The notes under the pieces were generated by a model. The model was not told the DNA's origin. It saw only the letters and a program-made list of their open reading frames with translations, and made no database searches. From positions 1-64,000 of the forward strand of contig MHLM01000012.1 of assembly GCA_001821395.1 (NCBI GenBank): a stretch of 64,000 nucleotides of DNA, in the 5' to 3' direction. The translations under genes and the position numbers were made by a program. Of this stretch, positions 1 through 39,255 are shown in pieces (position 1 is the stretch's first letter; every line of letters starts with the position of its first letter). The stretch comes from Candidatus Lloydbacteria bacterium RIFCSPHIGHO2_02_FULL_50_18 (GTDB lineage: Bacteria > Patescibacteriota > Minisyncoccia > Phycocordibacterales > UBA6899).

Positions 1-121
1 GGTACGTGGAAAGATCGACGGCACCGGACAGCGGTCCAAGCGGGGCGAGGAGCGTGTAGGTGGGGGCGGCAGCGAGGGCGGAGAAAGGAAGCGTAAGGAG
101 CAAGGTTGCAAATTTTTTCAT
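1..121 (-). CDS. N-terminal fragment of a secreted protein; the gene continues beyond the window edge
   Basis: Minus-strand ATG at 121-119 reads MKKFATLLLTLPFSALAAAPTYTLL, a signal-peptide-like N-terminus. The ORF runs off the window start. Confidence 0.3.
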   Translation of the reverse strand, partial: MKKFATLLLTLPFSALAAAPTYTLLAPLGPLSGAVDLSTY

Positions 122-128: not shown

Positions 129-1499
129 TTATCGAATTGAACCTGCTGCATCTTTTTGTTCCTCAGGCGTTAGAGGGGGAAGTGTCTCGGAGACATTCAT
201 AGACCCAAGGTCTCCCGTGGGTTTCGGCAGCCGCATTGACCACAACGAATCATCTTCTTTGTTCACAAATATGAAGTGACGCCCACTCTTATCAATGAGC
301 GGCATGATAACATCGAAGTGTTTTTGGATGACCGATTCCGGATCCGCAATGAAGGTGATCTCCGTTGTATCGGTGTTCACCATCCAGAATGTATCACTCA
401 GACTAATGAGACCTTGATACCATTCATCAGGAAGTTTCGTTCCCGTTGAACCGACAAATGAACCGCAATAGAGCGTAGAGGGTAATACCCCCCATGCGCA
501 TTTCTCAGGAAGCGTCGCGAGTGGGATAAGTGCTTCGTGGTTCTCGACGCCCTCATGCGAGGAAAAACTTTTCTTTGTATACATTCCAAGGAATGGTGCA
601 TTTGCGACATTTTCGCCAAAGAGAATGCGACTCCCGACACTGTCTCCAAAAGTTGTGAGTCCATTCTTTTCTCGCACAATACGGGTAAGCGTTTTCTTGA
701 TCGGATCATACAAATAGGAATACCCGGCGATACCGGCAGATGGTTTTGTCGTGAGGAGAATAGTGCCATCGTCAAAAAGTTGAGGCAGCCATTCACTAAA
801 TGAGTTACGGAATACCTCCTTAGGGAAAAGCGTCGCATTGAGTGAGATGAGGGTGCCAGATACACCATCGGAAACAGGAAGCAGATAAAAAAGGCGAGTC
901 CCGTCAGGTGAAATGCTGACCGCACTGATATTGTCGGGAAGAAACTCCGTGCTACTGCGAATACTCCCCATACTTTCTTCATTGGTCGGAAGTTCAAGAT
1001 TTCCGAGATAGGTGACAATAACATCATTATTCAGCACACGTTTTAAGTAGCGCATGATGATCGTGTTGCCGTTGTTCCCAAAGAATGCCTCGTAGACACG
1101 AGGAATAGTCGTGTTGGTGATCTGACGGTCCGTTCCTGTTGACGGATCAACCTCATGGATATTCCCATTTTCTCGAAGCACGTAGCGTACATAGGTTATT
1201 CCGTCCCGAATCACGGTGGTAAATCCTGCAACGGACTCTTTCGACAATTGTCGGAACACTGGCTCTTCACCTGTGATTACCGGTGTCTCCTCGCTTCCTG
1301 TTGGAGTAATGTCTCCGATTATATCACTCACCGGTGTCTCCGGTAATACTTGTCCGAAGGGAAGGACTGCACCAACCTTTCTTGCGATAGAAGTATCCTT
1401 CCCAAGGGTGAGCAGTAGAACAAGAATGACCAGCAGAACGACGACGATTCCCGCAACGATCCATATCCACCACCTTTTGCGTTGTTCTTCTTGCTCCAT
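129..1499 (-). CDS. hypothetical membrane-anchored protein (N-terminal TM helix, large extracytoplasmic domain)
   Basis: 456-aa ORF. Its N-terminus WWIWIVAGIVVVLLVILVLLLTLG is a single TM anchor. No recognisable catalytic motif. Confidence 0.55.
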   Translation of the reverse strand: MEQEEQRKRWWIWIVAGIVVVLLVILVLLLTLGKDTSIARKVGAVLPFGQVLPETPVSDIIGDITPTGSEETPVITGEEPVFRQLSKESVAGFTTVIRDGITYVRYVLRENGNIHEVDPSTGTDRQITNTTIPRVYEAFFGNNGNTIIMRYLKRVLNNDVIVTYLGNLELPTNEESMGSIRSSTEFLPDNISAVSISPDGTRLFYLLPVSDGVSGTLISLNATLFPKEVFRNSFSEWLPQLFDDGTILLTTKPSAGIAGYSYLYDPIKKTLTRIVREKNGLTTFGDSVGSRILFGENVANAPFLGMYTKKSFSSHEGVENHEALIPLATLPEKCAWGVLPSTLYCGSFVGSTGTKLPDEWYQGLISLSDTFWMVNTDTTEITFIADPESVIQKHFDVIMPLIDKSGRHFIFVNKEDDSLWSMRLPKPTGDLGSMNVSETLPPLTPEEQKDAAGSIR

Positions 1500-1511
1500 A
1501 TGTTGATGAGA

Positions 1512-2501
1512 TTATTCTTGTGACGTAAATGATATAACTCCTTGAACTCTTGCATGCTGCAGAATACGTTTTGGATTTTGCACGTCGAGCGAGATCGTTT
1601 GTGATTCCAAATTTTTACCCGACCTCACGAGTGTCAGGTTCTGTGCGTCAACTTCTGATTGTCGATATTGATTGCCGACATTCCATTTATAGGAAAGTTC
1701 ACCATTGAGTAAGCCGTCAAGAGAAAAGAAATACGGCACAGCGCGTACAGTGAATTCCGTACCTGTCGTTTCCGTAGATTGTTTTAGTGCATGATGAAAG
1801 AGGGTGCCAAGAAGTGGTGCTTGCTCATAGAGTGTGACTTTTGGATCTGAAACAGGAATTGCGACGTATTTTGCCCCCTTCCACTCAGTCCCAGGAAGAC
1901 TTGTTTCGACATCGACGGGTACTGAGGACCCGGCATAACCAACGGGAATAACGATGCTGTTTCGTCCGATAGCTTCTCCCGCCCCCTTTATGCGGTCATA
2001 GGTCCATTTGTAATAGTATTCAGCAGGATTGCTTGTCAGGGTGTTGAATCTCGGGATCGCCGTTACCCGCACCATGCTTTTGTAGCTGGGGAGCGCTTTT
2101 CCTTTGTAGAATGGAGGTGTATATGTTTGAGCTTCCCAGAGAATGTCGACTTCTGCAGGGGCAATAACAAGCTGCTTATTAAGCGTCTGTCCTTCGGCGG
2201 TGAGAATGATTACGTCGATAATGGTCTGCTCTCCAAAGTCTCCCGTCCGAACAGTGATCGATTTTTCCGCCATGCCATTTTTGATTGGCTCTTTATTGAC
2301 ATACCAGGTGATATTTGCGGTACTGAGATTCACTGCGAAGGAATTCATGAGTACGAGGACGCTCTCGTTTGCGCCGGGTGTTTTTGGGGTCGTCGTGAAT
2401 TTCACGAGATCAAATCCTGCTGCAAATAGCGTTCCAGGAAAAGTTGTTAATGAGAAAATTATTCCAATGAGCAATAGTGCTCGTTTTGTACTAAGATACA
2501 T
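1512..2501 (-). CDS. hypothetical secreted protein
   Basis: 329-aa ORF with signal peptide MYLSTKRALLLIGIIFSLTTFPGTLFAAG. Confidence 0.55.
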   Translation of the reverse strand: MYLSTKRALLLIGIIFSLTTFPGTLFAAGFDLVKFTTTPKTPGANESVLVLMNSFAVNLSTANITWYVNKEPIKNGMAEKSITVRTGDFGEQTIIDVIILTAEGQTLNKQLVIAPAEVDILWEAQTYTPPFYKGKALPSYKSMVRVTAIPRFNTLTSNPAEYYYKWTYDRIKGAGEAIGRNSIVIPVGYAGSSVPVDVETSLPGTEWKGAKYVAIPVSDPKVTLYEQAPLLGTLFHHALKQSTETTGTEFTVRAVPYFFSLDGLLNGELSYKWNVGNQYRQSEVDAQNLTLVRSGKNLESQTISLDVQNPKRILQHARVQGVISFTSQE

Positions 2502-2642
2502 GGAATAATTTTACCTTATTTACCTCCAACCCTCAACTGAGTTATCAAGTACCGGTTGCTGTTTTCCTTGTGTTGTAAAGATCAATATTCTCCTCAACAG
2601 AGCTGGGGTGTATGTCGCGCGGATCAAGTCATTCAATCTGCA

Positions 2643-3089
2643 CTAAGTACTCGGAATAACGAGTCTCCCGGCACCAGAAATAACTTTTTTGGCAATGCCC
2701 ATTGCTCGTCCGACAAAGAAAGATGCAAAAAAGGCGATACTTGCGTCAGGGAGAAGATTAATGATGGGGATCATCCCCATAAGCGCACAAATACTGGTGA
2801 TCATAAATTTTGTCATGATCCCTCGACGTGAATAGAGGTGATAGATCATTGCGATGATTCCAACAGTAAGCGTCATAATCCCACCGAGAATCATGCAAGC
2901 GATAGAGATGGGAATACCGATGACCGTTGCCGCGGTCATTGCCTCAATGCCAGAAAGGAAGAGGTCGATAATGTCCTTAAGTATCATGATCCCTGCGACA
3001 AGCCAAAAAAAGAGCATATTTGTAGCTGCCTTCGCAGCAGATTCGCCGGAATTATCAGGTTTTGCTGTTTTTAGTGAAGATAGTGCCAT
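2643..3089 (-). CDS. small polytopic membrane protein; possible T4SS pilin / VirB2-VirB3-like subunit
   Basis: 148 aa with 3-4 hydrophobic helices. It sits immediately downstream of the VirB4-like ATPase in the same orientation. Confidence 0.45.
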   Translation of the reverse strand: MALSSLKTAKPDNSGESAAKAATNMLFFWLVAGIMILKDIIDLFLSGIEAMTAATVIGIPISIACMILGGIMTLTVGIIAMIYHLYSRRGIMTKFMITSICALMGMIPIINLLPDASIAFFASFFVGRAMGIAKKVISGAGRLVIPST

Positions 3090-3095
3090 TCTGTA

Positions 3096-4895
3096 TTATC
3101 CTTTAGCCTCCGCAAGCTCCTTTTTTGCCTTCGCTATTGCCAGCATTTGTGCCGGATCGGAGCTGACGATCTGGTCTTCGGTGTAAGAAGCGTAGACCTT
3201 GATAGCGACGTGCTTTAATCCTGCGAAGAAAAGTCCTTCCCCTACCCCTGACTCGAGTAAGAGATACTTTTCTTCATCAGTTAAATGGAACGTCTGCTGT
3301 ACAAGATCGATCGTCGTCGGTGATTGCTTGAGGAGTATTTGGATCGATGAGTTGGTGAGGATCGGAAGCCCATACGGAGAACGAAGGAAATCGTTGACGT
3401 CCTGGGTGATGGTCGCAATACCGAGGTAGTATTTACGACCGCGTTTCGCAAGACCAAAAAGGAATGATGCCGTATCCTCGGATTTCATCATCCACCACGC
3501 TTCATCAACAACGAGGAGGCGTTTGCGTATCTCCTTTCGTATCGCTGTCCAAATATGGTGCGTGACGATATAGACGGCGACTGGCTTCAACTCGTCCTCC
3601 ATGTTGCGGACAGAGAACACGGTGAAGCGCTTTGTGATATCCACATTCGTTGGCTGGTTCAAGAATCCCGACCAGGTTCCTCTCGTGTATTTCTCAAGGC
3701 GCTGAAGGAGCGACTCCGTTCCGTTCATTCCGGAGAGGACGATCTCGAAGTCCGACAGTAGTGGCGGCTCGATATCAGCAAAATTAATATCAGGCGTGAT
3801 ATCCTTGAGTGCGTATGTTTCTGAAATTGCACGGTCAATGATCGAGTCTTCCTCCGGAGTGAGTCCTCCGAGCATAATGCGGAACAGTCCGACGAGGAAG
3901 ATGATATTCGAGCGCAGCACGTCCGCACCGGACTCATCTTCGCGTGGGGCAGGAAGGTCGAACGGATTGATGTGATGTTCTGATGTCAGTGAGATATTAA
4001 AGTAGCGCCCTCCCGTCGCTTCCGCAAGAAATCCGTACTCTTGCTCAGGGTCGATAACGATCACATCCGCATCGAACATGAGTGTTCGGATGATCTCGAG
4101 TTTTGTTGAATAGGATTTTCCCGAACCTGAGACGGCAAATGTGACCGAATTGTAGTTCGGCATTGAGAATCGATCAAAAAGTACAAGCGAAGCATTGTGC
4201 CTGTTGATCCCCCAAAGAATTCCCTTGTCCGAGGTAAGGTCGAAGGAAACGAACGGGAATATCGACGAAAGTGGCGCAGAGTTCATCTTGTAGTGGACCT
4301 CAAGCTCGTCAGTCATGAGCGGGAGAACGCTGCGGTATGCTTGCTCTTGCTGGAAGATCGCCGGTTTTAAATATACGAGTTTCGCATCAAGGATCGACTT
4401 GAGCTCACTCTCTACTTTGTCGAGCTCGTTTCGATCGTTGGCATAGATCGTGATATAGACACCAACATCAAAAAGGCGCTCTTCCGCTTGTTGGAGCTTG
4501 TCACGCAGTCCCTCGAGGTCTTGGTATGCGATATCAAGCACCGGGTCACGGACAAACCCCTTGCGCTCACGTTCGTTGATCTGGCTCTGTACCTCAGCGA
4601 CCTTTTTCTGGAACGAACGGAGCGCGAGTTCTGTTTGCACGGGATGGATCATGATTGCGACATCGAACACTTTGTCGAGATTGATGATAGGAGTGAACCA
4701 ATCCTGCGACAAGAACCGAGGATAGGAGATCACGAACAACGTGCGTGCGATCTTGTCGCCGATAAAGATATCTTTTGGAGTGATGTCTACGGCGGCGGGA
4801 GCAAGAATATCCTTCATGTCGAGGTTTGTTGACTCGAATATATCAGAAGGAAGCACCCCGGTATTTAAATTTTCAAATCCTTTTTTTTCTGCCAT
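3096..4895 (-). CDS. virB4: VirB4/TrbE/CagE-family type IV secretion ATPase (ATPase domain portion)
   Basis: Walker A FAVSGSGKSYST and Walker B LLVVDEAWWMM, both typical of the VirB4 family. The N-terminal region TLFVISYPRFLSQDWF resembles the VirB4 central conserved block. Confidence 0.8.
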   Translation of the reverse strand: MAEKKGFENLNTGVLPSDIFESTNLDMKDILAPAAVDITPKDIFIGDKIARTLFVISYPRFLSQDWFTPIINLDKVFDVAIMIHPVQTELALRSFQKKVAEVQSQINERERKGFVRDPVLDIAYQDLEGLRDKLQQAEERLFDVGVYITIYANDRNELDKVESELKSILDAKLVYLKPAIFQQEQAYRSVLPLMTDELEVHYKMNSAPLSSIFPFVSFDLTSDKGILWGINRHNASLVLFDRFSMPNYNSVTFAVSGSGKSYSTKLEIIRTLMFDADVIVIDPEQEYGFLAEATGGRYFNISLTSEHHINPFDLPAPREDESGADVLRSNIIFLVGLFRIMLGGLTPEEDSIIDRAISETYALKDITPDINFADIEPPLLSDFEIVLSGMNGTESLLQRLEKYTRGTWSGFLNQPTNVDITKRFTVFSVRNMEDELKPVAVYIVTHHIWTAIRKEIRKRLLVVDEAWWMMKSEDTASFLFGLAKRGRKYYLGIATITQDVNDFLRSPYGLPILTNSSIQILLKQSPTTIDLVQQTFHLTDEEKYLLLESGVGEGLFFAGLKHVAIKVYASYTEDQIVSSDPAQMLAIAKAKKELAEAKG

Positions 4896-4900
4896 AGCGA

Positions 4901-5548
4901 TTACATGACTGAAGACTCAAGTTCTCCGGGATTAAATTTCTTGTAAAAAAGTTCGGTTATTTCTTCGGTTCCAAGTCGGATCGTGCGCAAGTCGCATCGG
5001 GAAAGACCTTGTTCGACGATTGATGCACGCTGCTCAAGCTGGACGCGTGCTTCCTCAAAGCTGTGTGTTTCTGCGGCGGTCAGTTTTTTGCTCGAGGCCT
5101 TCTTTCCGAAAATACCGGACAGGAGACCTCCTCCCCCGCTCCCCTTAGCAAGGCTCACTCCTCCCGAATATGGGATGATGATAAAAAAGTTCTTTGACAT
5201 GATATTCGTGCGGCTCGTGAAGTCTCTGACGAAGCTGATATATTCATGCACTTGAATCTTCATGGCATCAACGAGTTGTGCCCGTTCTCGTTCCTCAAGC
5301 ATCTTGAGGTATGGCCGGATGTCGAGACGCTTCGATTGGATGGAGATCTGAATAGGAAATTCGAGTGAGTTCAGGACATTTTGGAATTGCATCAGTATCG
5401 CGGCTTGCTCATCCCCAGATTTTAGTCCAAAGTTAAGGGATGAGGTCATCAGCATCATGCGGAGGTCGCCATTGTTGAGTACGATGACACCATTCCTGAT
5501 ATCACGAATGGGAACGAAATCTTGTGACGGTTTTCCTAATGTTGGCAT
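4901..5548 (-). CDS. VirB4 N-terminal-domain-like protein (apparent split VirB4); start assumed at MPTLGKP
   Basis: The segment IVLNNGDLRMMLMTSSLNFGLKSGDEQAAILMQFQNVLNSL matches the VirB4/TrbE N-terminal region pattern. It ends 5 nt before the ATPase ORF start. The two ORFs together are about 814 aa, the normal VirB4 length. Confidence 0.45.
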   Translation of the reverse strand: MPTLGKPSQDFVPIRDIRNGVIVLNNGDLRMMLMTSSLNFGLKSGDEQAAILMQFQNVLNSLEFPIQISIQSKRLDIRPYLKMLEERERAQLVDAMKIQVHEYISFVRDFTSRTNIMSKNFFIIIPYSGGVSLAKGSGGGGLLSGIFGKKASSKKLTAAETHSFEEARVQLEQRASIVEQGLSRCDLRTIRLGTEEITELFYKKFNPGELESSVM

Positions 5549-5562
5549 GCTGCAATTATAAC

Positions 5563-6009
5563 TTAAATAACGGCTGATTCCGAGCCTCGTTTCTCTATGA
5601 CCTTCGGTTTCGTGTCGATATCCATGGACCACGTAAGGTCACTCAGCTTATTTCCTGTTCCGGCGATCGGAAGTGACCCCACTTTGATTGTCGTTTGAAA
5701 ATTATTCAGATTGAGTTCGGTCGGCATGAGTGTTTTTTCTGATCTTTTCCACACGTAGCGACGCACATTTTTCATATAGTTAAATGCGGACTCGATCATG
5801 TTCGCAAACGGTTTTTTATTTGGGCGGTAGAATCCGAGTGCTCCCCCAAGACCAACGCACCCGAGAGCGAGGAACCAGCCGATAAATGGTATACGAGAGC
5901 ATATGTAGCCGAGACCGACACTGCCCGCGATGTAGAGAAACTGCTTGATCGTGAGCGGACCAATGACCTTATCTTCAACATCAAGAAATTGTGGTACCTG
6001 GAACTGCAT
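5563..6009 (-). CDS. PrgI/VirB3-like small T4SS membrane protein
   Basis: N-terminus MQFQVPQFLDVEDKVIGPLTIKQFLYIAGSVGLGYI followed by two TM helices, as in PrgI/TcpE-like proteins of monoderm conjugation systems. Start assumed at the internal Met. Confidence 0.5.
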   Translation of the reverse strand: MQFQVPQFLDVEDKVIGPLTIKQFLYIAGSVGLGYICSRIPFIGWFLALGCVGLGGALGFYRPNKKPFANMIESAFNYMKNVRRYVWKRSEKTLMPTELNLNNFQTTIKVGSLPIAGTGNKLSDLTWSMDIDTKPKVIEKRGSESAVI

Positions 6010-6105
6010 TATGGTTAGTTTACCTTTTTTTGTTTTAGGTGAACAGCGATCCGCCACTCACTGGGGAAGCACTAGCATTTCTTCCGCAAAGAGGCCTAGG
6101 AGTTT

Positions 6106-6750
6106 TTACCCTTCGGTCGTCTCCCTATAAGCATCTGGCTGTGTAGTCAGACTCGGTGCTTTTGTCTCGACAGGCTGAAAAGGAACAGTTGGCGTCGGTG
6201 GAGGGGGAACGACGAGCATGGGGTCCATGACCCGCTCCCTTGTCGGTGTCGGTATGGGGCTACTCATACGGAATGCGCCGCCAAGTTTTTGTTCGAATAT
6301 ACTCCCCACCGGCCTTGTCGGTGTCGGAGGTGTGGGGGTGACGATGATCGGTCGTTCTACGGTTGTTGTCGCCTGTGGTGCGCTCGCTGTCCCAGATCCG
6401 GAAATAGTTGACGGCGTGGTTTCAGTATATAGAGCGGTAAGAGAACCTTTGACACTGTTAAAGATATTTAAGTTGAGGTCCTGAGCAATAAGTGCTGCTT
6501 GTTCGCGAGATATCTTTAGCTCGTCTGTGAGCGCTATCACAAACTGCTGTGGCTGGGTGACGCCCATGAGGAGTAGACTGGATTGATGAGAGAGTGATTT
6601 TCGCTGCGCGGTACTGAGTACGAATTTTGTTGCGATCGCATCGTAGTACTCTGAAGTTTGCGGAGAAAAAATGACATCCTGAAGATCATCCGGCAGAGAG
6701 CGGTATATCGATAAAAGATCTTCTTTGGTATAAGTGTATGCCATGATCAC
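6106..6750 (-). CDS. hypothetical protein with Pro/Thr-rich C-terminal region
   Basis: 214 aa with PTPPTPTRP and PPPPTPTVP low-complexity linker-like stretches. It lies between the VirB6-like and PrgI-like genes. Confidence 0.45.
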   Translation of the reverse strand: MIMAYTYTKEDLLSIYRSLPDDLQDVIFSPQTSEYYDAIATKFVLSTAQRKSLSHQSSLLLMGVTQPQQFVIALTDELKISREQAALIAQDLNLNIFNSVKGSLTALYTETTPSTISGSGTASAPQATTTVERPIIVTPTPPTPTRPVGSIFEQKLGGAFRMSSPIPTPTRERVMDPMLVVPPPPTPTVPFQPVETKAPSLTTQPDAYRETTEG

Positions 6751-6753
6751 AGA

Positions 6754-9132
6754 TTAGCTCGCAAGCTTGTTTAGGTTGTCCTGGATCGATTTTTCACTTG
6801 CCTCTGCTGCATCGTGTGCTTTCTGCGCATCACCGATCTTTGTAGATATCCCCGTTGCTTTTGCCGCAGCAAGTCTCGCCTCTGTCTCTGCGCTTCTCAG
6901 TTTTGCTGCGCCGAGATCGATCTTCAGAGCGTCTCCACTCTTTGTTTTTGCAGCTCGAGCGATGTTGCGCTGGTAATTTTTCATATCACTTTCTTGGATG
7001 GTTCCCATTTCGAAAAGTGAAGATTTTCCTTCCGGAGAATTCATGTAGTTCACCACCTCTTCTCTCCCTCCGATTGCCACACTCTTAGTGAGCTTTTCTG
7101 TAACGCCTGCCTTGTAGCCGTCCTCGCTGACCGCCTTCCTCTGTATTGCATGAAGGTCTGCCTTCGTGAGATTACGTGCAAACGCGACACTTTCATAGTG
7201 GTCTTCTGCCAGCTTAGCTCGATCAATAGAAGTGAGGCCTTGCATTGCTTTCTTCATTTCTTCAGATACCTCCTTTGTTATTCGAATGACCTCATCATCA
7301 GCAGATTTGTTTATGGCGAGCTTCTCCTCATCTGTTTTGGCGTCTTTAATGGCAGCGGTGCGTTTCGTCTCGATATCGTTGATCCTTTCTTTTTCTGCTT
7401 TTGCGTGTTCCGCAATCTCCTCCTTGCTTTTTGCTAGGGCTATCCCCTTATTGAGCTCCTTTCGTGTCGCATCGTTACGCTTTGCGTCTGCGATGATCTC
7501 GCCAGGTTTGTTCGTAATATCTACCCCTCTTTGTTTTAAGTATGCTTGTTGCGCCGTCGGGTCATTTGGGAACCGTGCTTTTGCTGTGGCGATAAGCGCT
7601 TTCTCGTTTTCTGTGCCCACATAACCACCCACACCCTTATAAGAGAGAGAGCCCTCAGCGCCACCCGTTGTTGCATAACTCCTCTTGCTCCCAGCGCCTG
7701 TTTGAATCCCTACTGCTCCCAATGCGGCTCCGACACCAAGTCCTTTCATTGGCGCATTGCGTATGTCGTAGGTCCCCTTACTTGCTTTCTCTGCGGCGGC
7801 AAGTTTGAGGTTTGCGGAGCGGGCTGCAAACTTATCTCCTATCTTTGCGTCTTTCATACCACCCTTTGCAATAAGCTTATTTTGTTCAGCGACCCATTTT
7901 TCATTTTGGAGCTTACTCCTGCCCGCCCTACCCGCCGTTTGTCTCCCTACTGCTCCTGCGGCACCGAAACCGGCTGCGGCTCCATAGCCAAGGCCTCTCT
8001 TCGCCCACCTACTTCCACTGTCTCCCGCGCCCGCACTCACCGCATTTGCAACCGTGAGTGATGCGAGCAGCAGTATGATCATCAGTACGTAGTTGTAGAT
8101 GATTGGCAGACTACCAGGGTCTCCTGCGAGTGCGGCACCCCATTTTAATCCCTTGGCGCCGCCAAGAGTGTTGAGGTCAACACCGTTAATGATGATGATC
8201 ACGAGATAGAGCATCGCAAGGAATGCGGGCGCTACAAAGGCGTTGCCGATTAGTTTACTCAGCCATTTTTGGCTGAATCCGCCTCCCACAGGTAGGGCAA
8301 AAGAAAGAAAGGCAAATGGAGAAACGATCATCAGAAATATAAGGGTCACCGTGCGAATGATCATCATGATCGCTCCCGCGAGAAATACATATCCGGCAAC
8401 CAGCATAACGAGCGCACCGCCAATATAAATAAGGATACGATTTATGGGTTGTATGCCCGGAATCGTGTTTCCATCCTTATCTTTAAAGTCAGCGATCGAC
8501 TGGAGTTTTAACGCACCCAGGAGATGCTGTGCAGCAGAAGAATCTCCCGGCACTTTTCCCATCTCCATTTTTGACCAAAATCCCATAGCGAGCACGTTGC
8601 CGGCATCAATAACTACTTTTGTGGCAAAGAGGCTGAAATTGATCAGTATTGCGGCGAGGATCAGATTTGCAACCCAGCGTTTAGTGCTTGAGCCACCCAT
8701 GCCAAGAATCGTCTTGATGGCAATATAGAGTAGTGCAAAAATAAAGAACATATTTGAAAAGTCGCGCACCGTCGTCCAACCGACATTGATCACCTGGAGA
8801 CTCGAATACATATTGCTGTCGATAGTGGACTGAATTGCCATATCAAGCAAGAGGCCGCATCCCTCAAGAAACAAGCCGGCCGCCCAAAATATTGCCTGCG
8901 CGAGCATTTCCAGTAATGCGAGCGCAGCGTTCCCCGCCGCATCAAGTGCAGCTCCGCCAAAAAGCTTTGCTGCTACATACGACCCCCCCGCCCAGAGCGC
9001 CCAGGCAATTGGAAGAAATCCTCTAGAAGTACTATTGAAGCGATCTATCTTTTGGTTCTCTGCTGTGTCTGCCGAGTTCCGAAAAAGCGGTTTGAATTTT
9101 TTGTGTGCTATCGAGTAGTAATAAAGTTTCAT
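6754..9132 (-). CDS. VirB6/TrbL-like polytopic membrane protein with long hydrophilic Ala/Lys-rich C-terminal domain
   Basis: 792 aa. The N-terminal ~380 aa hold 6 or more TM helices separated by Gly-rich loops (TrbL/VirB6 architecture). The C-terminal half is charged and coiled-coil-like (KAEKERINDIETKRTAAIKDAK...). Confidence 0.55.
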   Translation of the reverse strand: MKLYYYSIAHKKFKPLFRNSADTAENQKIDRFNSTSRGFLPIAWALWAGGSYVAAKLFGGAALDAAGNAALALLEMLAQAIFWAAGLFLEGCGLLLDMAIQSTIDSNMYSSLQVINVGWTTVRDFSNMFFIFALLYIAIKTILGMGGSSTKRWVANLILAAILINFSLFATKVVIDAGNVLAMGFWSKMEMGKVPGDSSAAQHLLGALKLQSIADFKDKDGNTIPGIQPINRILIYIGGALVMLVAGYVFLAGAIMMIIRTVTLIFLMIVSPFAFLSFALPVGGGFSQKWLSKLIGNAFVAPAFLAMLYLVIIIINGVDLNTLGGAKGLKWGAALAGDPGSLPIIYNYVLMIILLLASLTVANAVSAGAGDSGSRWAKRGLGYGAAAGFGAAGAVGRQTAGRAGRSKLQNEKWVAEQNKLIAKGGMKDAKIGDKFAARSANLKLAAAEKASKGTYDIRNAPMKGLGVGAALGAVGIQTGAGSKRSYATTGGAEGSLSYKGVGGYVGTENEKALIATAKARFPNDPTAQQAYLKQRGVDITNKPGEIIADAKRNDATRKELNKGIALAKSKEEIAEHAKAEKERINDIETKRTAAIKDAKTDEEKLAINKSADDEVIRITKEVSEEMKKAMQGLTSIDRAKLAEDHYESVAFARNLTKADLHAIQRKAVSEDGYKAGVTEKLTKSVAIGGREEVVNYMNSPEGKSSLFEMGTIQESDMKNYQRNIARAAKTKSGDALKIDLGAAKLRSAETEARLAAAKATGISTKIGDAQKAHDAAEASEKSIQDNLNKLAS

Positions 9133-9201: not shown

Positions 9202-10752
9202 TTATGGGAATGCCCAACCCGAATATCCGGTATCAAGTGCGTCCTGCTGGTTTGTATCCGTGACGACAACAGCTGTTGATTGTGAATTGAATTTCATTTC
9301 ATCATAGATCATAAGCATTGTTGCTTGAGACCAGTAGGAGGTGTCTTTTGAGACACCAAAATATCCGATATACATTGTATCGTAGAGCTCCTTCACGAGC
9401 TCATTCACTGCGTTCTTGCTCGTTTGGAGTGGAGTGGTGTCGAAATCATTGAGCCCTTCCTGAGCTATTTGTGCTGACTGGGCTTCTGCAGGGTTGCCCG
9501 CACCAGAGTCAAGTGTTTTTGTATCACGCACTTGCTGATTACCGCTTCCCGCAGAATCACCAACGCTCCGTTGTGCTTCTCCTGCCGGGGTGACGGCGAT
9601 TGAGTTTTGTTGCTCAAGACAGTAGGGGTCATCAGGACGACCCGAGCATTCTGTCACGCTTGAGAAGCCGCTGCTCATCATATCTTGTCTCTTTGCTTCC
9701 TCTTGGCGCGCCAGTCGTCCCTGTACGACCTGGTCCGCTAGCGTGCTTGCACCGAGAGGAGAATTTGCAGGATTGTTCAGCATTGCACTAAACGTGGAAA
9801 TTCCGTCAACGAGATTGGCGGGGTCGTTGAAATTTTCCATGAATTTTGATGAATCACCAGGATTAAGGTATGTCGAAAGAGAGGATCCAGTTATCGATTG
9901 TGTGTAATTGAATGGATCTTCTGTTGATGACCGAGCATTATTGGCCATGTTTGCCGCAGTATCGAGACGCCAATCAGGGAATACATCCCATGAGCCGACA
10001 GGGTTTCCGGACAGTGGGTCCGATGCCGCCTGATCAACCGCGTGTTCAAGCTGGCGTGCTTTAACGTTGTAAATACTCTGTGAAGCATTGGTGTTGTAGA
10101 CAGCAGAATTTGACACCATTCCATTGTCGACGACCTCGTTTCCCGCTTTTGCCCAGTTTATGTTGGCGGCCGACATCTTGTTCATCAGCTGGTTGTTGAG
10201 CTGCGCGGTCTGCGCATCGGTAATATAGCTTTTGAGCAGCTGATGTATCTGGAGTGAGAGTCCTAATTTTTGCCATTCCACCTGTTCCTCGAGGAGGCAT
10301 CGGAGTGAGTGGCTATAATTGACCTGGACATATGGACCGGTTTTTGTTGCTGCTGGCGGACCTGCCGGAACTCCAAGGGGAAGTGTTGATGACGCCGAGG
10401 CATCCTTCCATGGTGTTGAACTGCCGGTAGTATAAGCAAATGCGGCATTTGGAAACCCCTCCATGTTATCACCCCTAATACATGGACCCCCCGCTTGTGC
10501 CATTGTGAGATTGTTTGCGGTAATGAGGTTCCGCAGTGAATCGGGATTATTTTTGAGGACATCGTTCATGTCTTTTGCATAAGTATCGAATTTCGTTGCG
10601 TACGAATTGAAGTCCGATATCAGGGTGGCATCATTGACCGGCACATATTGCGCGCTTGCATCTATCGGAGCAAGAAGGAGGACAAAAAATAATAGCATCA
10701 TCGTAAAAAAAACGTTGATGCTGTTCTCAATATTCATTATCTTATTGTACAT
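9202..10752 (-). CDS. hypothetical secreted protein
   Basis: 516 aa with signal peptide (FFTMMLLFFVLLLAPIDASA) and an Asn/Gln/Ser-rich mature region. Confidence 0.55.
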   Translation of the reverse strand: MYNKIMNIENSINVFFTMMLLFFVLLLAPIDASAQYVPVNDATLISDFNSYATKFDTYAKDMNDVLKNNPDSLRNLITANNLTMAQAGGPCIRGDNMEGFPNAAFAYTTGSSTPWKDASASSTLPLGVPAGPPAATKTGPYVQVNYSHSLRCLLEEQVEWQKLGLSLQIHQLLKSYITDAQTAQLNNQLMNKMSAANINWAKAGNEVVDNGMVSNSAVYNTNASQSIYNVKARQLEHAVDQAASDPLSGNPVGSWDVFPDWRLDTAANMANNARSSTEDPFNYTQSITGSSLSTYLNPGDSSKFMENFNDPANLVDGISTFSAMLNNPANSPLGASTLADQVVQGRLARQEEAKRQDMMSSGFSSVTECSGRPDDPYCLEQQNSIAVTPAGEAQRSVGDSAGSGNQQVRDTKTLDSGAGNPAEAQSAQIAQEGLNDFDTTPLQTSKNAVNELVKELYDTMYIGYFGVSKDTSYWSQATMLMIYDEMKFNSQSTAVVVTDTNQQDALDTGYSGWAFP

Positions 10753-10764: not shown

Positions 10765-11763
10765 TTATTGAATAGTCTGAACAGGTCCTGGCGTCTGCAT
10801 AAGGACTCGCGTGAATGGATACCCGGGTTCCCCCTCAGTGAAGACGATCCCGCTGGTCTTCAAAAATGAAACTACTTCACTGTATCCGGTGGTGACGTCA
10901 AGGCGAGTTTTTGTGTATGTTTGATATCCGGCTGCTCCATTGATCGGGTCAGAAAAAAGATGCTGCATACCAAGAAGGCCTCGCGACATACCGTCATAAC
11001 TATTCACAATAATGAGGTGTGACTGAGCTAGTCCTGAGGGGGTTTTTAATGCGCGCAGGTCAAGAGAAAATTTTTGATACACGATCGTGAGTAGCTGTAA
11101 TTCCTTGAGGGTTTCATCATCTTTTGTTTTTAGTCCATCAGCAAGTATCTCCTCTTCCGTGCGGAGGTGCGTAGAAGTGTATTTGTTGATGAGCTCACCG
11201 AAGGCGTTACCATAGGAACGCAGTGCCTCGGGACTATTGTCTCCGATGATATTGAGATCAGCGAGCTCATTCGCGGGTTTATATTTCTCCGGATTGAAAC
11301 CTTTGATAAGGTCGCGATAGGTTGTTTCACGGACCTCCTTACCTTGTAGTGCAAGAAACTTTGCATAGAATTCCTTTCGTTTTCCCTCTATGTCGGTCGT
11401 AGATGTTGCAAAATTGGGGTCTTGCATGATGGCAAGCTTGTCATCAGGTCCTGCCTTCACCGGGTTTCTGCCTTGTGCGACCTCTGCCCCATCGAGAGTG
11501 CCATCCCCATCTGTATCAGGGTTATGCGAATCGCTCCCATAAAGGCCTTCCTCCCAGTCAAGAAGACCATCATCGTCGGAATCTCGCGTGTCAATATTAT
11601 TTGCGTTGTTTAGACCCTGTTCAACAAGCTCTTGCGCATCGCTGCTGATTTGGGGTGCGCGGTTCACAAAAAAACCTACACCAACAATGGTAAGCGCGAC
11701 GAGGCTGCTGATCACAAGATTTTTGTGCGGTGAATGCAAAAAGTCCATAAGATTTCTCAACAA
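10765..11763 (-). CDS. membrane-anchored protein with Asp-rich calcium-binding (thrombospondin type-3-like) repeats
   Basis: TM anchor (LVISSLVALTIVGVGFFV) followed by DSDDDGLLDWEEGLYGSDSHNPDTDGDGTLDGAE, a DxDxDG-type motif. Confidence 0.55.
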   Translation of the reverse strand: MLRNLMDFLHSPHKNLVISSLVALTIVGVGFFVNRAPQISSDAQELVEQGLNNANNIDTRDSDDDGLLDWEEGLYGSDSHNPDTDGDGTLDGAEVAQGRNPVKAGPDDKLAIMQDPNFATSTTDIEGKRKEFYAKFLALQGKEVRETTYRDLIKGFNPEKYKPANELADLNIIGDNSPEALRSYGNAFGELINKYTSTHLRTEEEILADGLKTKDDETLKELQLLTIVYQKFSLDLRALKTPSGLAQSHLIIVNSYDGMSRGLLGMQHLFSDPINGAAGYQTYTKTRLDVTTGYSEVVSFLKTSGIVFTEGEPGYPFTRVLMQTPGPVQTIQ

Positions 11764-11897
11764 AAGAATGCTCCACTATTGTATCAATAATAGAATAAGA
11801 ACGGGTGAGAATATATATATGTGTGTGGATAACTGACGCTCGAGTAATCGATATTTCTGAATACAAAAAAGCGGAGCATGGTGCTCCGCATTCTCTC

Positions 11898-14207: not shown

Positions 14208-15050
14208 CTATTTTTCGTGAGGGTGTTTTGTATGACTTGAGATTTTCTTAGTAAGCCACATCCATGTTCCGATCGGCAGATCCTCTCCCCGTGCTTTTTT
14301 ATCAATACTGAGCTCGTCAAAGTACTCAATTATCTTGTCTTTATGTATACCTAATCCCTCTGAAAGATTTCCGACGAGCATTTTTCGTTTCGCGCGAAAA
14401 CCGGCCTTGATGAGGGTGAAGAATTCTTTTTCAGTAAAATCTTCGATCCTTTGTTTGCTGATATTGGTGATCATGAGGATCGCAGAATCGACCTTTGGCA
14501 CCGGATCAAAGGATTCCTTTGGGACCGTTGCAACATATACCGGGTCACCAAATATCTTAATTGAGAGTGAAAGGATCGTCTCTTTTTTGTTGCGCGAGAC
14601 GATCTGCTCCGCGACCTCTTTTTGTACGAGGAAGGTGAGCTGTGAAGGAGCACGGTGTTCCTCGAGAAAATAGCGGAAAAGCATTCCGGTAATGTAATAA
14701 GGAATGTTGGCGACGACTTTATATGTCGGCACATTACCGAGTAGTTCATCAAATAATTCCCGCGTAATATTTTTTTCCAGAATGTCGCCTTCTAAAAGTA
14801 TTAGGTGACCATCGCGAAGCGCATCAGCAAATCGGTCAGTAAGAATGGGGATGCAGCGCGTATCCTTTTCAATCGCGATCACATGAGCCCCAGCGTTCAA
14901 GAGGGCATTCGTGAGCGCCCCTTCCCCGGGGCCGACTTCAATGACGATGTCTCCGGGGAATATACCGGATGCATCAATGATCTTTTCAATGGTCGTTTCC
15001 GAGCGGAGAAAATTCTGTCCTAATGATTTTTTTGCTTGAATATTTTTCAT
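14208..15050 (-). CDS. rsmA: 16S rRNA (adenine1518/1519-N6)-dimethyltransferase
   Basis: KKSLGQNFL and VIEVGPGEGALT are the KsgA/RsmA signatures. Start taken at the internal Met MKNIQAKK. Confidence 0.85.
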   Translation of the reverse strand: MKNIQAKKSLGQNFLRSETTIEKIIDASGIFPGDIVIEVGPGEGALTNALLNAGAHVIAIEKDTRCIPILTDRFADALRDGHLILLEGDILEKNITRELFDELLGNVPTYKVVANIPYYITGMLFRYFLEEHRAPSQLTFLVQKEVAEQIVSRNKKETILSLSIKIFGDPVYVATVPKESFDPVPKVDSAILMITNISKQRIEDFTEKEFFTLIKAGFRAKRKMLVGNLSEGLGIHKDKIIEYFDELSIDKKARGEDLPIGTWMWLTKKISSHTKHPHEK

Positions 15051-15071
15051 AGAATCTACGCAAGCGGATGA

Positions 15072-15124
15072 AATTCGAGGCGTGGAGAAAGCGAAGAAGA
15101 CATATTCATATATGTTGACCGAGT
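15072..15124. repeat. short repeat, inverted copy of the one at 19503-19611
   Basis: The motifs GCTTTCTCCACGCCTCGAAT and GTCAACATATATGAATATGTCTT are shared (in reverse complement) with 19503-19611. Confidence 0.45.
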
Positions 15125-15170
15125 CGCAGAGGCTCCACAACGAAGAAGTTCGCCACTTGCGTAGATTCTA

Positions 15171-27006: not shown

Positions 27007-27948
27007 ATGGACTTACATGAGTGGAAAAAACATTTTCTTGAATACACGGAAATAGAAAAAGGAAGAAGTATTCATACGGTAGAAAATTATGATCGCTATT
27101 TGACGCGTTTTCTTGAATATTCGAAGCTGACGCAGCCGTCGGATATTACCTATGACGTCGTCCGTGAATACCGTCTTTGGCTCAATAGGCAGCTCGCAAC
27201 GGAGTCGCGTCGGGGGGTTCCGGAAACTACATTAAAAAAGCGGACACAGAACTATTATCTGATCGCTCTTCGCGCATTCCTGAAATATTTGATGCGTCAG
27301 GGTGCTGAAAATATCATGTCGCCGGAGAAGATCGAGCTCGCAAAAGTTTCAGAGCGTGAATTAGACCTGATATCCACACAGGATCTTGATCGTCTGCTCA
27401 TGGCCCCACGGGGTGATACGCTTGTTGCGCTTCGCGATACAGCGATACTGGAATTATTATTCTCCACCGGTCTGCGTGTATCTGAATTGTGCGGGCTGCC
27501 ACGCGACTTGGATCTTTCCCGCGATGAGTTTTCCGTGCGGGGAAAGGGTGAAAAGGTGCGTGTCGTATTTTTGTCCGAGACGGCGAAAGCAGCACTGAAG
27601 GCTTATCTTCACAGAAGGACAGATGTTGATGACGCCCTTTTTGTGCAGGTGGGCCGCGGCGGAGAACGATCCCAAATCAAAAAAGAAGGTTCGTTAAGGC
27701 TTACTTCCCGTTCCGTGGAACGCCTTGTGAAACACTATGCAATAAAGTCAGGAATCTCAAAAAAGGTCACCCCTCATGTTATTCGTCACAGTTTTGCCAC
27801 TGACCTATTGGAAAATGGGGCCGACCTTCGTTCCGTGCAGGCGTTATTGGGGCATGCAAATATTGCCACCACGCAGATATACACACATGTGACTGATAGC
27901 AAACTTCGTGAAGTGCATAAGCTGTTTCACGATAAGCGCAAAAGGTGA
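27007..27948 (+). CDS. tyrosine site-specific recombinase, XerC/XerD family
   Basis: C-terminal catalytic block HVIRHSFATDLLENGADLRSVQALLGHANIATTQIYTHV (R..H..R..Y). The N-terminal SAM-like domain has the conserved W/Y residues. Confidence 0.9.
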   Translation: MDLHEWKKHFLEYTEIEKGRSIHTVENYDRYLTRFLEYSKLTQPSDITYDVVREYRLWLNRQLATESRRGVPETTLKKRTQNYYLIALRAFLKYLMRQGAENIMSPEKIELAKVSERELDLISTQDLDRLLMAPRGDTLVALRDTAILELLFSTGLRVSELCGLPRDLDLSRDEFSVRGKGEKVRVVFLSETAKAALKAYLHRRTDVDDALFVQVGRGGERSQIKKEGSLRLTSRSVERLVKHYAIKSGISKKVTPHVIRHSFATDLLENGADLRSVQALLGHANIATTQIYTHVTDSKLREVHKLFHDKRKR

Positions 27949-31389: not shown

Positions 31390-31503
31390 GAAATATTCGC
31401 CAGGAATTTCGACCCCTACTGGGTCAGTACCTCATTCCCATTTTTCAGATTAAGAAATCTTCAAAAACATGGTAATGGGCTTCGAATCCTGTCGAAGCTG
31501 AAG
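31390..31503 (-). repeat. tRNA-3'-associated structured element (Arg copy) plus degenerate duplicate of the tRNA-Arg 3' end
   Basis: Read on the minus strand: GGATTCGAAGCCC...TTTTTGAAGATTTCTTAATCTGAAAAATGGGAATGAGGTACTGACCCAGTAGGGGTCGAAATTCCTGGCG. It is homologous to the elements at 32048-32150 and 35191-35302. Confidence 0.5.
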
Positions 31504-31543
31504 CAGTTCAGCTTCTCGGGAGCACAACTCGCTTCGCTCTTTG

Positions 31544-31615
31544 TGCTCCCGCCAGGATTCGAACCTGGAATAACTGCTTCGAAGGCAGTCGTGATATCCA
31601 TTTCACTACGAGAGC
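31544..31615 (-). tRNA. tRNA-Arg (anticodon TCG)
   Basis: Manual cloverleaf: acceptor GCTCTCG/CGGGAGC, D-stem GTGA/TCAC, anticodon stem ACTGC/GCAGT with loop CTTCGAA, T-arm CCAGG-TTCGAAT-CCTGG. Confidence 0.85.
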
Positions 31616-31731
31616 GTACTTTGTATTAAAGCAGATGATCAATGATAAAGCACGGCCAATAGAGATGAAGCGCTTGAAGGATGTATCCCTGTTTGCCATT
31701 TTCGTGTGAATTCGTTAGTATTGGTCCACAA

Positions 31732-31805
31732 GCGGGTATGGTTTAGTGGTAGAATACGTCCTTGCCAAGGATGAGACGGGAGTTCGATTCTCCCTACCCG
31801 CACCA
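31732..31805 (+). tRNA. tRNA-Gly (anticodon GCC), CCA encoded
   Basis: Acceptor GCGGGTA/TACCCGC, anticodon loop TTGCCAA, T-arm GGGAG-TTCGATT-CTCCC, 3' ACCA. Confidence 0.9.
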
Positions 31806-31828
31806 GGGTTGAGTGAAGCGGAAGTTAG

Positions 31829-31888
31829 CAAATCGTGAAATAGCAAAAATAACGAGATATCTCGTTATTTTTGCTATTTCACGATTTG
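31829..31888. repeat. 60-bp perfect palindrome immediately downstream of tRNA-Gly
   Basis: CAAATCGTGAAATAGCAAAAATAACGAGAT|ATCTCGTTATTTTTGCTATTTCACGATTTG has exact dyad symmetry. Confidence 0.7.
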
Positions 31889-32047
31889 TAACGATTTCCA
31901 TTTCCGAAAATCGCCGTGCGAGGAAAACTCTGCTTACCCGCATTAATTTTGCACTGTGCATGGTTTAAGGAAAGAAATCGTTCCGCCTCACTCAACTCTG
32001 TTGTTTCATATGCAAGCCTGTTTGGAAGTGTTTTGCCCCACTTCCGT

Positions 32048-32150
32048 GGGAGAATCGAAGCCTTTTCCCTTATTTTTGAAGGATTCATATCCTGAAAAAA
32101 TGGGAAATGGGCACTGAAACTGTAAGTTTCGATTCTCCCTACCCGCACTA
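32048..32150 (+). repeat. tRNA-3'-associated structured element (Gly copy) followed by a duplicate of the tRNA-Gly 3' end (att-like)
   Basis: GGGAGAATCGAAGCC...TTTTTGAAGGATTCATATCCTGAAAAAATGGGAAATGGGCACTGAAACTGTAAG, then TTTCGATTCTCCCTACCCGCACTA (compare the tRNA 3' end TTCGATTCTCCCTACCCGCACCA). Confidence 0.55.
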
Positions 32151-32310
32151 GGAACGAGCGTGATAAAAGGCCCTTCATAGGGCTTTTTATCACCGAGTGA
32201 CGACGTGCGGGAGGCTTTGCCTACGCGCACTAGGATGAACAACGAGCGTGATAAAAGGCCCTTCATAGGGCTTTTTATCACCGAGTGACGACGTGCGGGA
32301 GGCTTTGCCT
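32144..32310. repeat. tandem direct repeat (2 units of about 85 bp), each unit carrying a bidirectional terminator-like hairpin
   Basis: The unit CGCACTAGGA(TGAAC)AACGAGCGTGATAAAAGGCCCTTCATAGGGCTTTTTATCACCGAGTGACGACGTGCGGGAGGCTTTGCCTAC occurs twice. The hairpin is AAAAGGCCC-TTCAT-AGGGCTTTTT. Confidence 0.6.
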
Positions 32311-32496
32311 ACTCAGCAGTCATTTTTGATCAACTTGAGCTTTTGGTGTGCTGCTCACAAAGAATATACGTTTTTTATGAAATACAGGTAAATGCAAAGC
32401 ATTTTCTCCTTAAAAAATTAAACGTCGGCAATAAAATATTTTTTCTGAAATTCGTCAATAATTCCTAAAATATGTGATTTTAAGCATTTTTTGAAC

Positions 32497-32544
32497 TTAT
32501 CCACACCTGCTGTGCATAAAAACTGTGGATAAGTCTGTGGAAAG
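32497..32544. promoter_or_regulatory. cluster of DnaA boxes (three matches to TTATNCACA plus one 7/9) beside an AT-rich tract
   Basis: TTATCCACA at 32497-32505. TGTGCATAA at 32511-32519 and TGTGGATAA at 32524-32532 are reverse-complement boxes. TGTGGAAAG sits at 32536-32544. The stretch 32380-32490 is highly AT-rich. Confidence 0.5.
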
Positions 32545-32706
32545 TGGGTATAAAGGACATTATAATGACTTTTATTATGTCCTTTAGGAATTTGATTGAG
32601 GGCGGCGTTGTGCCGTTTCACGGAAAGCAAAGAATTAATGTTACTACGTAACAAATTAAGCAACAGTACAATATATCTGACTTGAATAACGTAAATTGGG
32701 TTTCAC

Positions 32707-33126
32707 ATGAAACTGAATAGTGAGAAACTTGAAAAAATGGGACAAATTACTGAAAAACAGCAAATAGGGAGGACCGGAGAGGATATTGCATGCTTGTTTC
32801 TCGTGAAACGTGGCTTTCAAATCGTTGAGCGTAATTTTTGGAAGAAGGTCGGTGAAATAGATATTATTTGCACAAAAGAGGAAAAATTTTACTTTGTTGA
32901 AGTAAAAACGATCGTAAAAAGAGGTGTTTCACGTGAAATGAGCGATAATTATCGTCCAGAAGATAATCTGCATGCTCAAAAGATCGTTCGACTTGGAAGA
33001 GCAATTGATATTTACCTTGAAGAGCAAAATATTGATGGTGATTGGGAAATACTTGGGGTCATGATAATTATTGACCCAAAGACTAAGATTGCAAAAGTGT
33101 CGCTTTTGGAAAATTTCGCCTGGTAG
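32707..33126 (+). CDS. YraN/UPF0102-family endonuclease
   Basis: GEDIACLFLVKRGFQIVERNFW...GEIDIICTKEEKFYFVEVKT matches the YraN signature. Confidence 0.7.
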   Translation: MKLNSEKLEKMGQITEKQQIGRTGEDIACLFLVKRGFQIVERNFWKKVGEIDIICTKEEKFYFVEVKTIVKRGVSREMSDNYRPEDNLHAQKIVRLGRAIDIYLEEQNIDGDWEILGVMIIIDPKTKIAKVSLLENFAW

Positions 33127-33403
33127 TCTTTTCACGTGAAACATAATGAACGAGAAGGATGACGGACCCAGGTCATAAGGTCGTTTTGTCTATTATGGGT
33201 GTTTCACGTGAAATCCTGCCTCAAATCTGTCTTGATCATCGCTTTGTTTTTGCGGTTTTATGTTTAGTGAAAGATAACTACAAAGTATAAATGAGCATAG
33301 CGCTGCTTGGGGATTACTCTTGAATTTTTTATGAGTATAATATGGAAAAGACAATCTTTATGAACAGGTTGCGTAGTTTAAAATTCTATGATATAATATT
33401 TCC

Positions 33404-33688
33404 ATGACTGATTCAAAACGCACCGAGTTGACACTGCATGCGATCGAGATCATTCACGGATCTCGTCTTTCAAGCGACGAGAAGATGATGCTTGAGGGGA
33501 GAATCCCGTTTATCTCTGATTCCATGCTTGAAATGTTTGTGCAGGTTTGCGATGAAGATCCGTTCGGCGTTGATGCAATCGTTAAAAATCTAAAGAAGAA
33601 ACTTGATGCAGGAGGGAATTTAAAACGATTGCATGAGATCGTAAAACAGGAGCGCAGGGAAATCGAAGATTCATTAGTCCTAGGATAA
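33404..33688 (+). CDS. hypothetical small protein
   Basis: 94-aa ORF, helical and charged, no motif. Confidence 0.45.
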   Translation: MTDSKRTELTLHAIEIIHGSRLSSDEKMMLEGRIPFISDSMLEMFVQVCDEDPFGVDAIVKNLKKKLDAGGNLKRLHEIVKQERREIEDSLVLG

Positions 33689-33698
33689 TAAATTTTAT

Positions 33699-39250: not shown

Positions 39251-39255
39251 GTATT

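Follow-up and report, generated by a model that had tools for sequence, protein, structure and literature searches.

A relaxase-free type IV secretion locus close to the replication origin of a Candidatus Lloydbacteria genome

What purpose is served by the core of a conjugation machine that has no relaxase beside it? This question is raised by a row of co-directional genes at the left end of a 64-kb stretch of DNA (contig MHLM01000012.1, positions 1 to 64,000; hereafter the window) from a Candidatus Lloydbacteria metagenome-assembled genome (MAG) from Rifle groundwater. An initial annotation, made from the sequence alone, had read positions 129–9132 as a type IV secretion system (T4SS) module with a role other than plasmid transfer in a small-genome episymbiotic lineage, and family searches, structure comparison, synteny and the literature now support that view. 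Our best explanation, to which we give a probability of about 0.88, is that the row is a chromosomal, relaxase-free Patescibacteria T4SS locus about 6 kb from dnaA and is not a conjugation apparatus, because no relaxase or coupling protein lies nearby and because the locus is inherited vertically. The system itself is already known: the locus is a typical member of the Patescibacteria T4SS published in 2023 and 2025, and nearly all ultra-small Patescibacteria carry such a cluster near the origin.

The interval 129–9132 contains eight co-directional genes on the minus strand rather than the six originally counted, and the row extends beyond both ends, upstream to about position 11748 and downstream past window position 1. 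Read in the direction of transcription, the row encodes proteins of 327 aa and 516 aa, the VirB6-like protein, a 212-aa protein, the PrgI-like protein, the TrsD-like protein, VirB4, and proteins of 148 aa, 329 aa and 456 aa, followed by a pilin gene. The sequence past the left edge was read from a 198-kb ENA scaffold from the Rifle aquifer (L001), which bears an identical VirB4 protein. All open reading frames (ORFs) of the locus are intact, and its GC content (0.47–0.50) is that of the rest of the window. The features of the locus are as follows.

L001 15952–17163: 403-aa protein with T4SS_pilin (27.2 bits, gathering score 26.6) and SLT lytic transglycosylase domains, a VirB2-like/VirB1-like fusion.
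L001 14775–15875: 366-aa protein with a T4SS_pilin domain (26.9 bits, gathering score 26.6), the first beyond the 456-aa gene.
2–121, minus strand: first 40 codons of this 366-aa VirB2-like pilin-domain protein; the translation (MKKFATLLL...) is the start of L001 14775–15875 and the remainder is off the left edge.
129–1499, minus strand: 456-aa bitopic protein with one N-terminal transmembrane helix (hydrophobic segment aa 8–39) and a large extracytoplasmic part.
1512–2501, minus strand: 329-aa protein, secreted or anchored at its N-terminus, whose predicted structure has three Ig/FN3-like beta-sandwich domains.
2643–3089, minus strand: 148-aa polytopic membrane protein with several hydrophobic segments, a lineage-specific insert.
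3096–4895, minus strand: 599-aa VirB4-type ATPase with central and C-terminal P-loop domains, from profile matches.
4901–5548, minus strand: 215-aa soluble TrsD-like protein in which the VirB4 N-terminal domain occurs as a separate copy, from profile matches.
5563–6009, minus strand: 148-aa PrgI/VirB3-like membrane protein with a two-helix hairpin, from Pfam PrgI and its orthologues.
6106–6744, minus strand: 212-aa Pro/Thr-rich protein without a hydrophobic segment, poorly conserved.
6754–9132, minus strand: 792-aa extended VirB6-like protein: about seven hydrophobic helices (aa 62–370), then some 420 aa of hydrophilic, helical tail.
9202–10752, minus strand: 516-aa secreted or anchored protein with an N-terminal hydrophobic segment, specific to Lloydbacteria-level relatives.
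10765–11748, minus strand: 327-aa N-terminally anchored protein with a TSP3 calcium-binding repeat (Pfam TSP3_bac, 26.1 bits, gathering score 25); probably the first gene of the operon.
11871–11889, minus strand: GC-rich, terminator-like hairpin with a T run behind it, at the end of the preceding 188-aa gene, from the promoter and terminator scan.

By its sequence, the product of 3096–4895 is unambiguously a VirB4. It matches the NCBIfam model conju_CD1110 with 361.9 bits (E 6.8e-108, profile positions 180–733 of 752) against a cut-off of 325 bits, and it also matches VirB4_plasma (3.8e-76), Pfam P-loop_TraG (6.2e-25) and the solved VirB4 domain in the PDB (chain 4ag5, 2.5e-34). Both the Walker A motif (AVSGSGKS, aa 254–261, window 4113–4136) and the Walker B motif (LLVVDE, aa 460–465, window 3501–3518) are intact. 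The VirB4-family ATPase of the initial annotation is thus borne out by profile search, and the proposed co-directional row of T4SS signature genes is present with scores far above chance. The PHROGs label of "terminase large subunit" for both VirB4 and the TrsD-like protein (phrog_2666, 8.4e-25) was rejected as a label or P-loop artefact, since VirB4-specific models score far higher; phrog_2666 probably represents a VirB4-like or wrongly annotated phage family, and its label could send automated annotation of 3096–5548 astray. Among the locus proteins, the CedB model found a weak match only (28 bits against a cut-off of 700).

The 215-aa ORF that precedes virB4 covers positions 104–233 of the VirB4_plasma profile and 2–117 of CD1110, and its precomputed Pfam assignment is PF26593, TraC-like. 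All 40 orthologues scanned match the N-terminal VirB4_plasma region, and 38 of the 40 match the TrsD/TraD family NF041427 (best 8.5e-9).

The assignments of PrgI and VirB6 rest on family-level and fold evidence, from sequence and predicted structure. The putative two-helix PrgI/VirB3-like protein scores 26.1–26.5 bits against Pfam PrgI, just below the gathering score of 27, and 39 of 39 orthologues scanned match this family (best 5.4e-13), which agrees with its first description as a two-helix membrane protein of this kind. Its true start is the ATG at 6009 (148 aa) and not the GTG at 6057, as M1 is invariant in the orthologue alignment. For the polytopic protein at 6754–9132, the initial annotation had made its reading depend on significant matches both of the ATPase to VirB4 and of this protein to VirB6/TrbL. 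The former lies far above its cut-off; the 792-aa protein itself has no Pfam match, and 8 of its 54 homologues match Pfam TrbL/VirB6. An AlphaFold model of the protein has a pLDDT of about 90 across the hydrophobic helices (aa 62–370), and a Foldseek search with this model ranked the TrwI/VirB6 chains of R388 first, with DotA also among the best long structural matches. The homologue matches and the predicted VirB6 fold together support the VirB6/TrbL-like identity. Profile matches of the family in the PDB to coiled-coil proteins (CCDC6) were dismissed, as they reflect the K/A/E-rich composition of the tail and not homology. Two of the 54 homologues also match the TrbC/VirB2 pilin model, and many carry an N-terminal hydrophobic segment that is absent from the window protein.

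The charged C-terminal extension, first put at some 400 aa, is a hydrophilic tail of about 420 aa with 73 K+R and 56 D+E residues. It is a feature of the whole family, with a median length of 400 aa, and it evolves rapidly: among 1.84 billion representatives, 28 proteins match it, almost all of them C-termini of the same VirB6-like family. AlphaFold predicts a confident helical domain at aa 510–710. Across the family, the 40 residues that directly follow the last hydrophobic helix are rich in K/R (median of 5 K/R against 1 D/E), which under the classical polytopic model favours a cytoplasmic tail. However, the solved R388 machine has only two of its VirB6 helices within the membrane, with the remainder in a periplasmic stalk (review, PMC12857230). 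Because that structure puts most of the VirB6 helices outside the membrane, the tail could lie on either side of it, either at the cell surface, as the initial annotation had proposed, or in the cytoplasm, and topology from hydropathy and the positive-inside rule was set aside as not decisive given the two membrane helices of R388 VirB6. In a few homologues there is an extra hydrophobic segment at the extreme C-terminus, so that the "tail" would be a loop.

The row continues on L001 with the two pilin-domain genes and a gene for a 247-aa protein, and then with jag, yidC, yidD, rnpA and dnaA. The jag-yidC-yidD-rnpA genes and dnaA are 4–6 kb past the left edge of the window, so the locus lies a few kilobases from the replication origin; ksgA is on its other side, at 14208–15140. 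The 366-aa pilin protein has a weak match to the pilin-like ICE (integrative and conjugative element) protein Mbov_0395. By eye, its C-terminus contains H..D and HxH motifs resembling those of LAS/M15 zinc peptidases, and Pfam and NCBIfam gave no match to a LAS/M15 peptidase there. The SLT transglycosylase domain just off the window supplies a VirB1-like component, for which the initial annotation had proposed a search, and no VirB8-like protein was identified in the locus. The original picture of a minimal system therefore holds in part: a VirB4/VirB3/VirB6 module without relaxase or coupling protein is present, and it is accompanied by pilins, the SLT fusion, the TrsD-like protein and two anchored proteins.

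These two anchored proteins are the 329-aa and 456-aa products, which are N-terminally anchored and extracytoplasmic, as had been suggested for the flanking proteins of the row. The 329-aa protein is the most conserved accessory gene product. Its predicted fold (pLDDT 85) consists of an N-terminal helix and three Ig/FN3-like sandwiches, and is therefore triple Ig-like and not NTF2-like, the latter being the VirB8/PrgL fold. It has 523 homologues, and no Pfam domain was found among the 120 listed. The 456-aa protein has no Pfam or NCBIfam match, essentially all of its 193 homologues are named hypothetical, and a sequence search of the PDB returned only noise (E ≥0.1). Profile scans of the 148-aa (2643–3089), 212-aa and 516-aa proteins likewise gave no family match. 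Of the two small membrane proteins claimed within the row, the one at 2643–3089 is a membrane protein and the one at 6106–6744 lacks a hydrophobic segment. The hairpin at 11871–11889, a single site and thus weak evidence, probably marks the upstream boundary of the T4SS operon; it is the only noteworthy site in a promoter and terminator scan of the region in which counts equalled those of shuffled sequence.

A scan with one genome per species yielded 539 VirB4 relatives, and synteny was compared in 85 loci, five of which are copies of the present locus. The best 80 of the 539 relatives all come from Patescibacteria MAGs, with 72–95% identity, and are named Lloyd-, Kaiser-, Taylor-, Nomura- and Zambryskibacteria, Paceibacterota and others. 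These values, which are a comparison of identity and not a phylogeny with outgroups, are consistent with a monophyletic Patescibacteria VirB4 clade. The comparison with other Patescibacteria T4SS loci, proposed in the initial annotation, revealed that the order VirB6 - PrgI - TrsD - VirB4 - 329-aa - pilin - 456-aa is kept across 80 species-level Paceibacteria genomes. Detectable copies were present in 61 (VirB6), 79 (PrgI), 82 (TrsD), 79 (329-aa), 52 (pilin) and 68 (456-aa) of the 85 loci. The gene ksgA is located about 7–10 kb upstream in 41 of them, and the TSP3 protein of 327 aa is upstream of VirB6 in 34. Three proteins are restricted to close relatives, namely the 148-aa membrane protein (7/85 loci), the 212-aa protein (18/85) and the 516-aa protein (7/85). 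A minor variation is found downstream of virB4, where the order here is 329-aa, 456-aa and pilins, and in most relatives the pilin is between the 329-aa and 456-aa genes.

Nothing in the scanned surroundings points to a conjugative module. Plausible ORFs of at least 110 aa were scanned; long ones lying antisense to a confirmed gene were skipped. Across the 64-kb window and 7 kb past its left edge, no ORF matched a relaxase family and none encoded a VirD4/TcpA-type coupling protein, and no element integrase or flanking repeats were seen at the locus or in the window. This extends to about 71 kb the absence of relaxase, VirD4 and integrase that had been claimed for the adjacent sequence. The sole tyrosine recombinase (27007–27948) is of the XerC/D type, and some 15 kb separate it from the closest gene of the row. 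The other scanned ORFs are mostly housekeeping genes (UvrD, ComM, PNPase, CCA-adding enzyme, RNase Y, trigger factor, ClpP, NusA, H+-pyrophosphatase and others), and those remaining belong to a chemotaxis cluster, are type IV pilus genes or have no match.

We consider a contact-dependent conduit between epibiont and host to be the most likely function of the machine. The parts list and its conservation are direct observations; the steps by which the parts would act are modelled on VirB-type systems. PrgI/VirB3 would tether the VirB4/TrsD motor to the membrane, and VirB6 oligomers would form a membrane platform or stalk. VirB4 would then extract pilin-like subunits and build a tube or stalk, for whose passage the fused lytic transglycosylase would open the cell wall. 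Anchored proteins, the Ig-like one among them, may scaffold the structure or contact the host cell.

Two explanations would deny that a working, resident system is present. One is that a frameshift has turned virB4 into a pseudogene, or that an error in sequencing has split it, leaving 215-aa and 599-aa pieces of a broken system. Such a reading is invited by the two ORFs themselves, which are 5 nt apart in different frames and jointly span the complete VirB4 profile. However, the identical split sequence was assembled independently in at least five metagenome assemblies, the start methionine is conserved in alignments of each protein, and a separate TrsD gene beside virB4 is the commonest component of Patescibacteria T4SS. 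Moreover, all 81 of the related loci compared have TrsD and virB4 as separate ORFs with a stop codon between them; the spacers vary, and the frames differ in 63. On this basis, we rejected the frameshift, whose probability is next to nil, and the split arrangement is, as judged from these alignments and loci, ancestral. The other is that the row is an integrated conjugative element or its decayed remnant, with relaxase, type IV coupling protein (T4CP) and integrase lost or located elsewhere. The NCBI name of the ATPase, "conjugal transfer protein TraC" (OGZ06203.1), points in this direction, as do the closest non-patescibacterial families, which are proteins of ICEs and plasmids (CD1110, Mbov_0397, TrsD, PrgI and CD3337/EF1877). 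This is very improbable in light of the same gene order and chromosomal place, between the ksgA side and the dnaA side, in about 80 species with identity that tracks taxonomy, and it is this conserved vertical synteny that refutes it. The native GC content, intact ORFs and preserved ATPase motifs also speak against an element, as does the lack of a relaxase, T4CP, element integrase and flanking repeats in the window and its left extension.

The remaining explanations concern what passes through the conduit, and nothing in the sequence decides between uptake and effector export. By analogy, we tentatively prefer uptake of host macromolecules, since known T4CP-less systems such as ComB need no cytoplasmic substrate receptor. 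Protein-effector export is possible and somewhat unlikely in our estimation. In this scheme, the VirB6 tail or a distant T4CP would recruit effectors in the cytoplasm, and a pilus would deliver them to manipulate or permeabilise the host bacterium. Wang et al. list protein export as an option given the absent relaxase and T4CP (PMC10633639), reviews mention effector delivery, and the large, fast-evolving, K/R-rich VirB6 tail could serve as a cytoplasmic docking domain. On the other hand, the locus contains no candidate effector or recognisable secretion signal, the adjacent T4CP that known cytoplasm-to-target effector translocators require is missing, and the tail could lie on either side of the membrane. 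We regard as unlikely the proposal that the two conserved accessory proteins (329-aa and 456-aa), along with the VirB6 tail and the fusions of pilin and hydrolase, are undescribed T4SS parts that form a Paceibacteria-specific architecture for host contact and macromolecule uptake; for example, the accessory proteins could replace VirB8 and the adhesin, and the VirB6 tail could take the place of a coupling protein as substrate receptor. Several points weigh against our preferred explanation, a resident Patescibacteria T4SS that is not used for conjugation. The window protein's own scores for PrgI (26.5 against 27) and VirB6 (no Pfam match) are below threshold, and no VirB8-like component was identified among the parts. 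The scans spanned about 71 kb of a genome of about 1.3 Mb, and a T4CP could be encoded elsewhere, as VirD4 homologues are found in most Patescibacteria genomes, usually far from virB4 (PMC12102498). Lastly, no experiment has been reported for any Paceibacteria T4SS.

Some features of the window stand apart from the locus. An Rfam scan found four tRNAs and nothing else. For the recombinase at 27007–27948, the best scores are nearly the same with XerD, XerC and archaeal XerA, a pattern that a single-Xer system would give. Between the tRNA genes (Arg, Gly, Pro) there is a low-GC patch (31500–35200, with 0.40 at 32001–34000 against about 0.48 elsewhere), which holds a UPF0102/YraN-like nuclease gene (32707–33126) and a 378-aa ORF without matches (33699–34835) and could be a small foreign insert. 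A chemotaxis set at 35477–40406 (cheW, response regulator, cheB, cheA, cheC/X and cheD) is present in this Parcubacteria-type genome. The window shows type IV pilus genes and no flagellar genes, and the chemotaxis set may steer pilus-based motility. The type IV pilus cluster (56042–63340) consists of a PilB-type ATPase (56042–57793), PilC (58528–59745), three short ORFs resembling prepilins, and a 618-aa protein that bears a choice-of-anchor R domain.

Much of bacterial diversity belongs to the Patescibacteria, which depend on hosts, and their T4SS is essential in the sole species tested. To this picture, which our finding leaves unchanged, the window adds a clean and intact Paceibacteria example with its full gene order. 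The conserved unnamed accessory proteins could guide structural work and, with the VirB6 tail, are the only open angle.

The published record provides the frame in which the locus is best placed. In a survey of 3,035 Patescibacteria genomes, Quinonero-Coronel et al. (2025, Microb Genom, PMC12102498) described a monophyletic VirB4 clade nested in MPF-FATA, with TrsD beside virB4 as the commonest component and PrgI/VirB3, VirB6 and VirB2-like pilins near virB4. The same survey found VirB1 homologues associated with virB4 in Paceibacteria, relaxases almost absent, T4CPs usually distant, and the Paceibacteria locus near dnaA, dnaN, rnpA, ksgA and rpmH; its Table S1 lists Candidatus Lloydbacteria RIFCSPHIGHO2_01_FULL_49_22 and _54_11 as VirB4-positive. 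By transposon sequencing (Tn-seq), Wang et al. (2023, PMC10633639) found that Southlakia epibionticum, a member of the Saccharibacteria, cannot grow as an epibiont without a homologous cluster (SEML1_0006-0019) and its pilin array (see also PMC12857230). Reviews call the role of the system "completely unknown" and discuss two ideas, effector export and macromolecule uptake, and a preprint raises the suggestion that tubular structures seen where parasite and host meet are T4SS pili (bioRxiv 10.64898/2026.06.21.733656).

The present locus shares with the Patescibacteria-clade T4SS a monoderm-type VirB4, the adjacent TrsD, PrgI/VirB3, VirB6, VirB2-like pilins nearby and a VirB1-like hydrolase, together with the absence of a nearby relaxase or T4CP and a chromosomal place near dnaA, rnpA and ksgA. 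Nothing essential differs, although Southlakia has a six-gene pilin array compared with two pilin-domain genes here, each pilin domain here is joined to a large C-terminal part (an SLT domain in one case), and three inserts (148-aa, 212-aa and 516-aa) are specific to Lloydbacteria. With the monoderm MPF-FATA conjugative systems (pCF10 Prg, pGO1 Trs, CD1110 of C. difficile CTn2, and Mbov_0395/0397 of the Mycoplasma ICE) the locus shares a VirB4, which here scores above the CD1110 cut-off, TrsD-like and PrgI-like proteins and the lack of an outer-membrane core (VirB7, VirB9, VirB10), and one of its pilin-like proteins weakly resembles Mbov_0395. In contrast to them, the Lloydbacteria locus has no relaxase, T4CP, PrgB-type adhesin or recognisable PrgL/VirB8; its VirB6 has about 800 aa where theirs has about 300; it has VirB2-like pilins; and it is chromosomal, vertically inherited and origin-adjacent instead of residing on a mobile element.

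Extended VirB6 proteins, which carry large hydrophilic domains, form a subfamily that is already recognised, and the 792-aa protein resembles Rickettsiales RvhB6 and the ConG/Orf15-type proteins of MPF-FA (700–900 aa) in its N-terminal block of at least five hydrophobic helices, its VirB6 fold and its large hydrophilic C-proximal region. It differs from them in that sequence relatives of its tail were detected only among close Paceibacteria VirB6 proteins and in that aa 510–710 are predicted to be helical and not disordered. Finally, the locus resembles the T4CP-less systems for DNA uptake in Helicobacter pylori (ComB) and for DNA import in archaea (Ced), both cited in the literature as precedent for import, in being centred on VirB4 with no relaxase or adjacent coupling protein. 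ComB differs in being a diderm system with VirB7, VirB9 and VirB10, the present locus gives no evidence of DNA as its substrate, and in Southlakia ComEC-dependent competence is separable from the essentiality of the T4SS.

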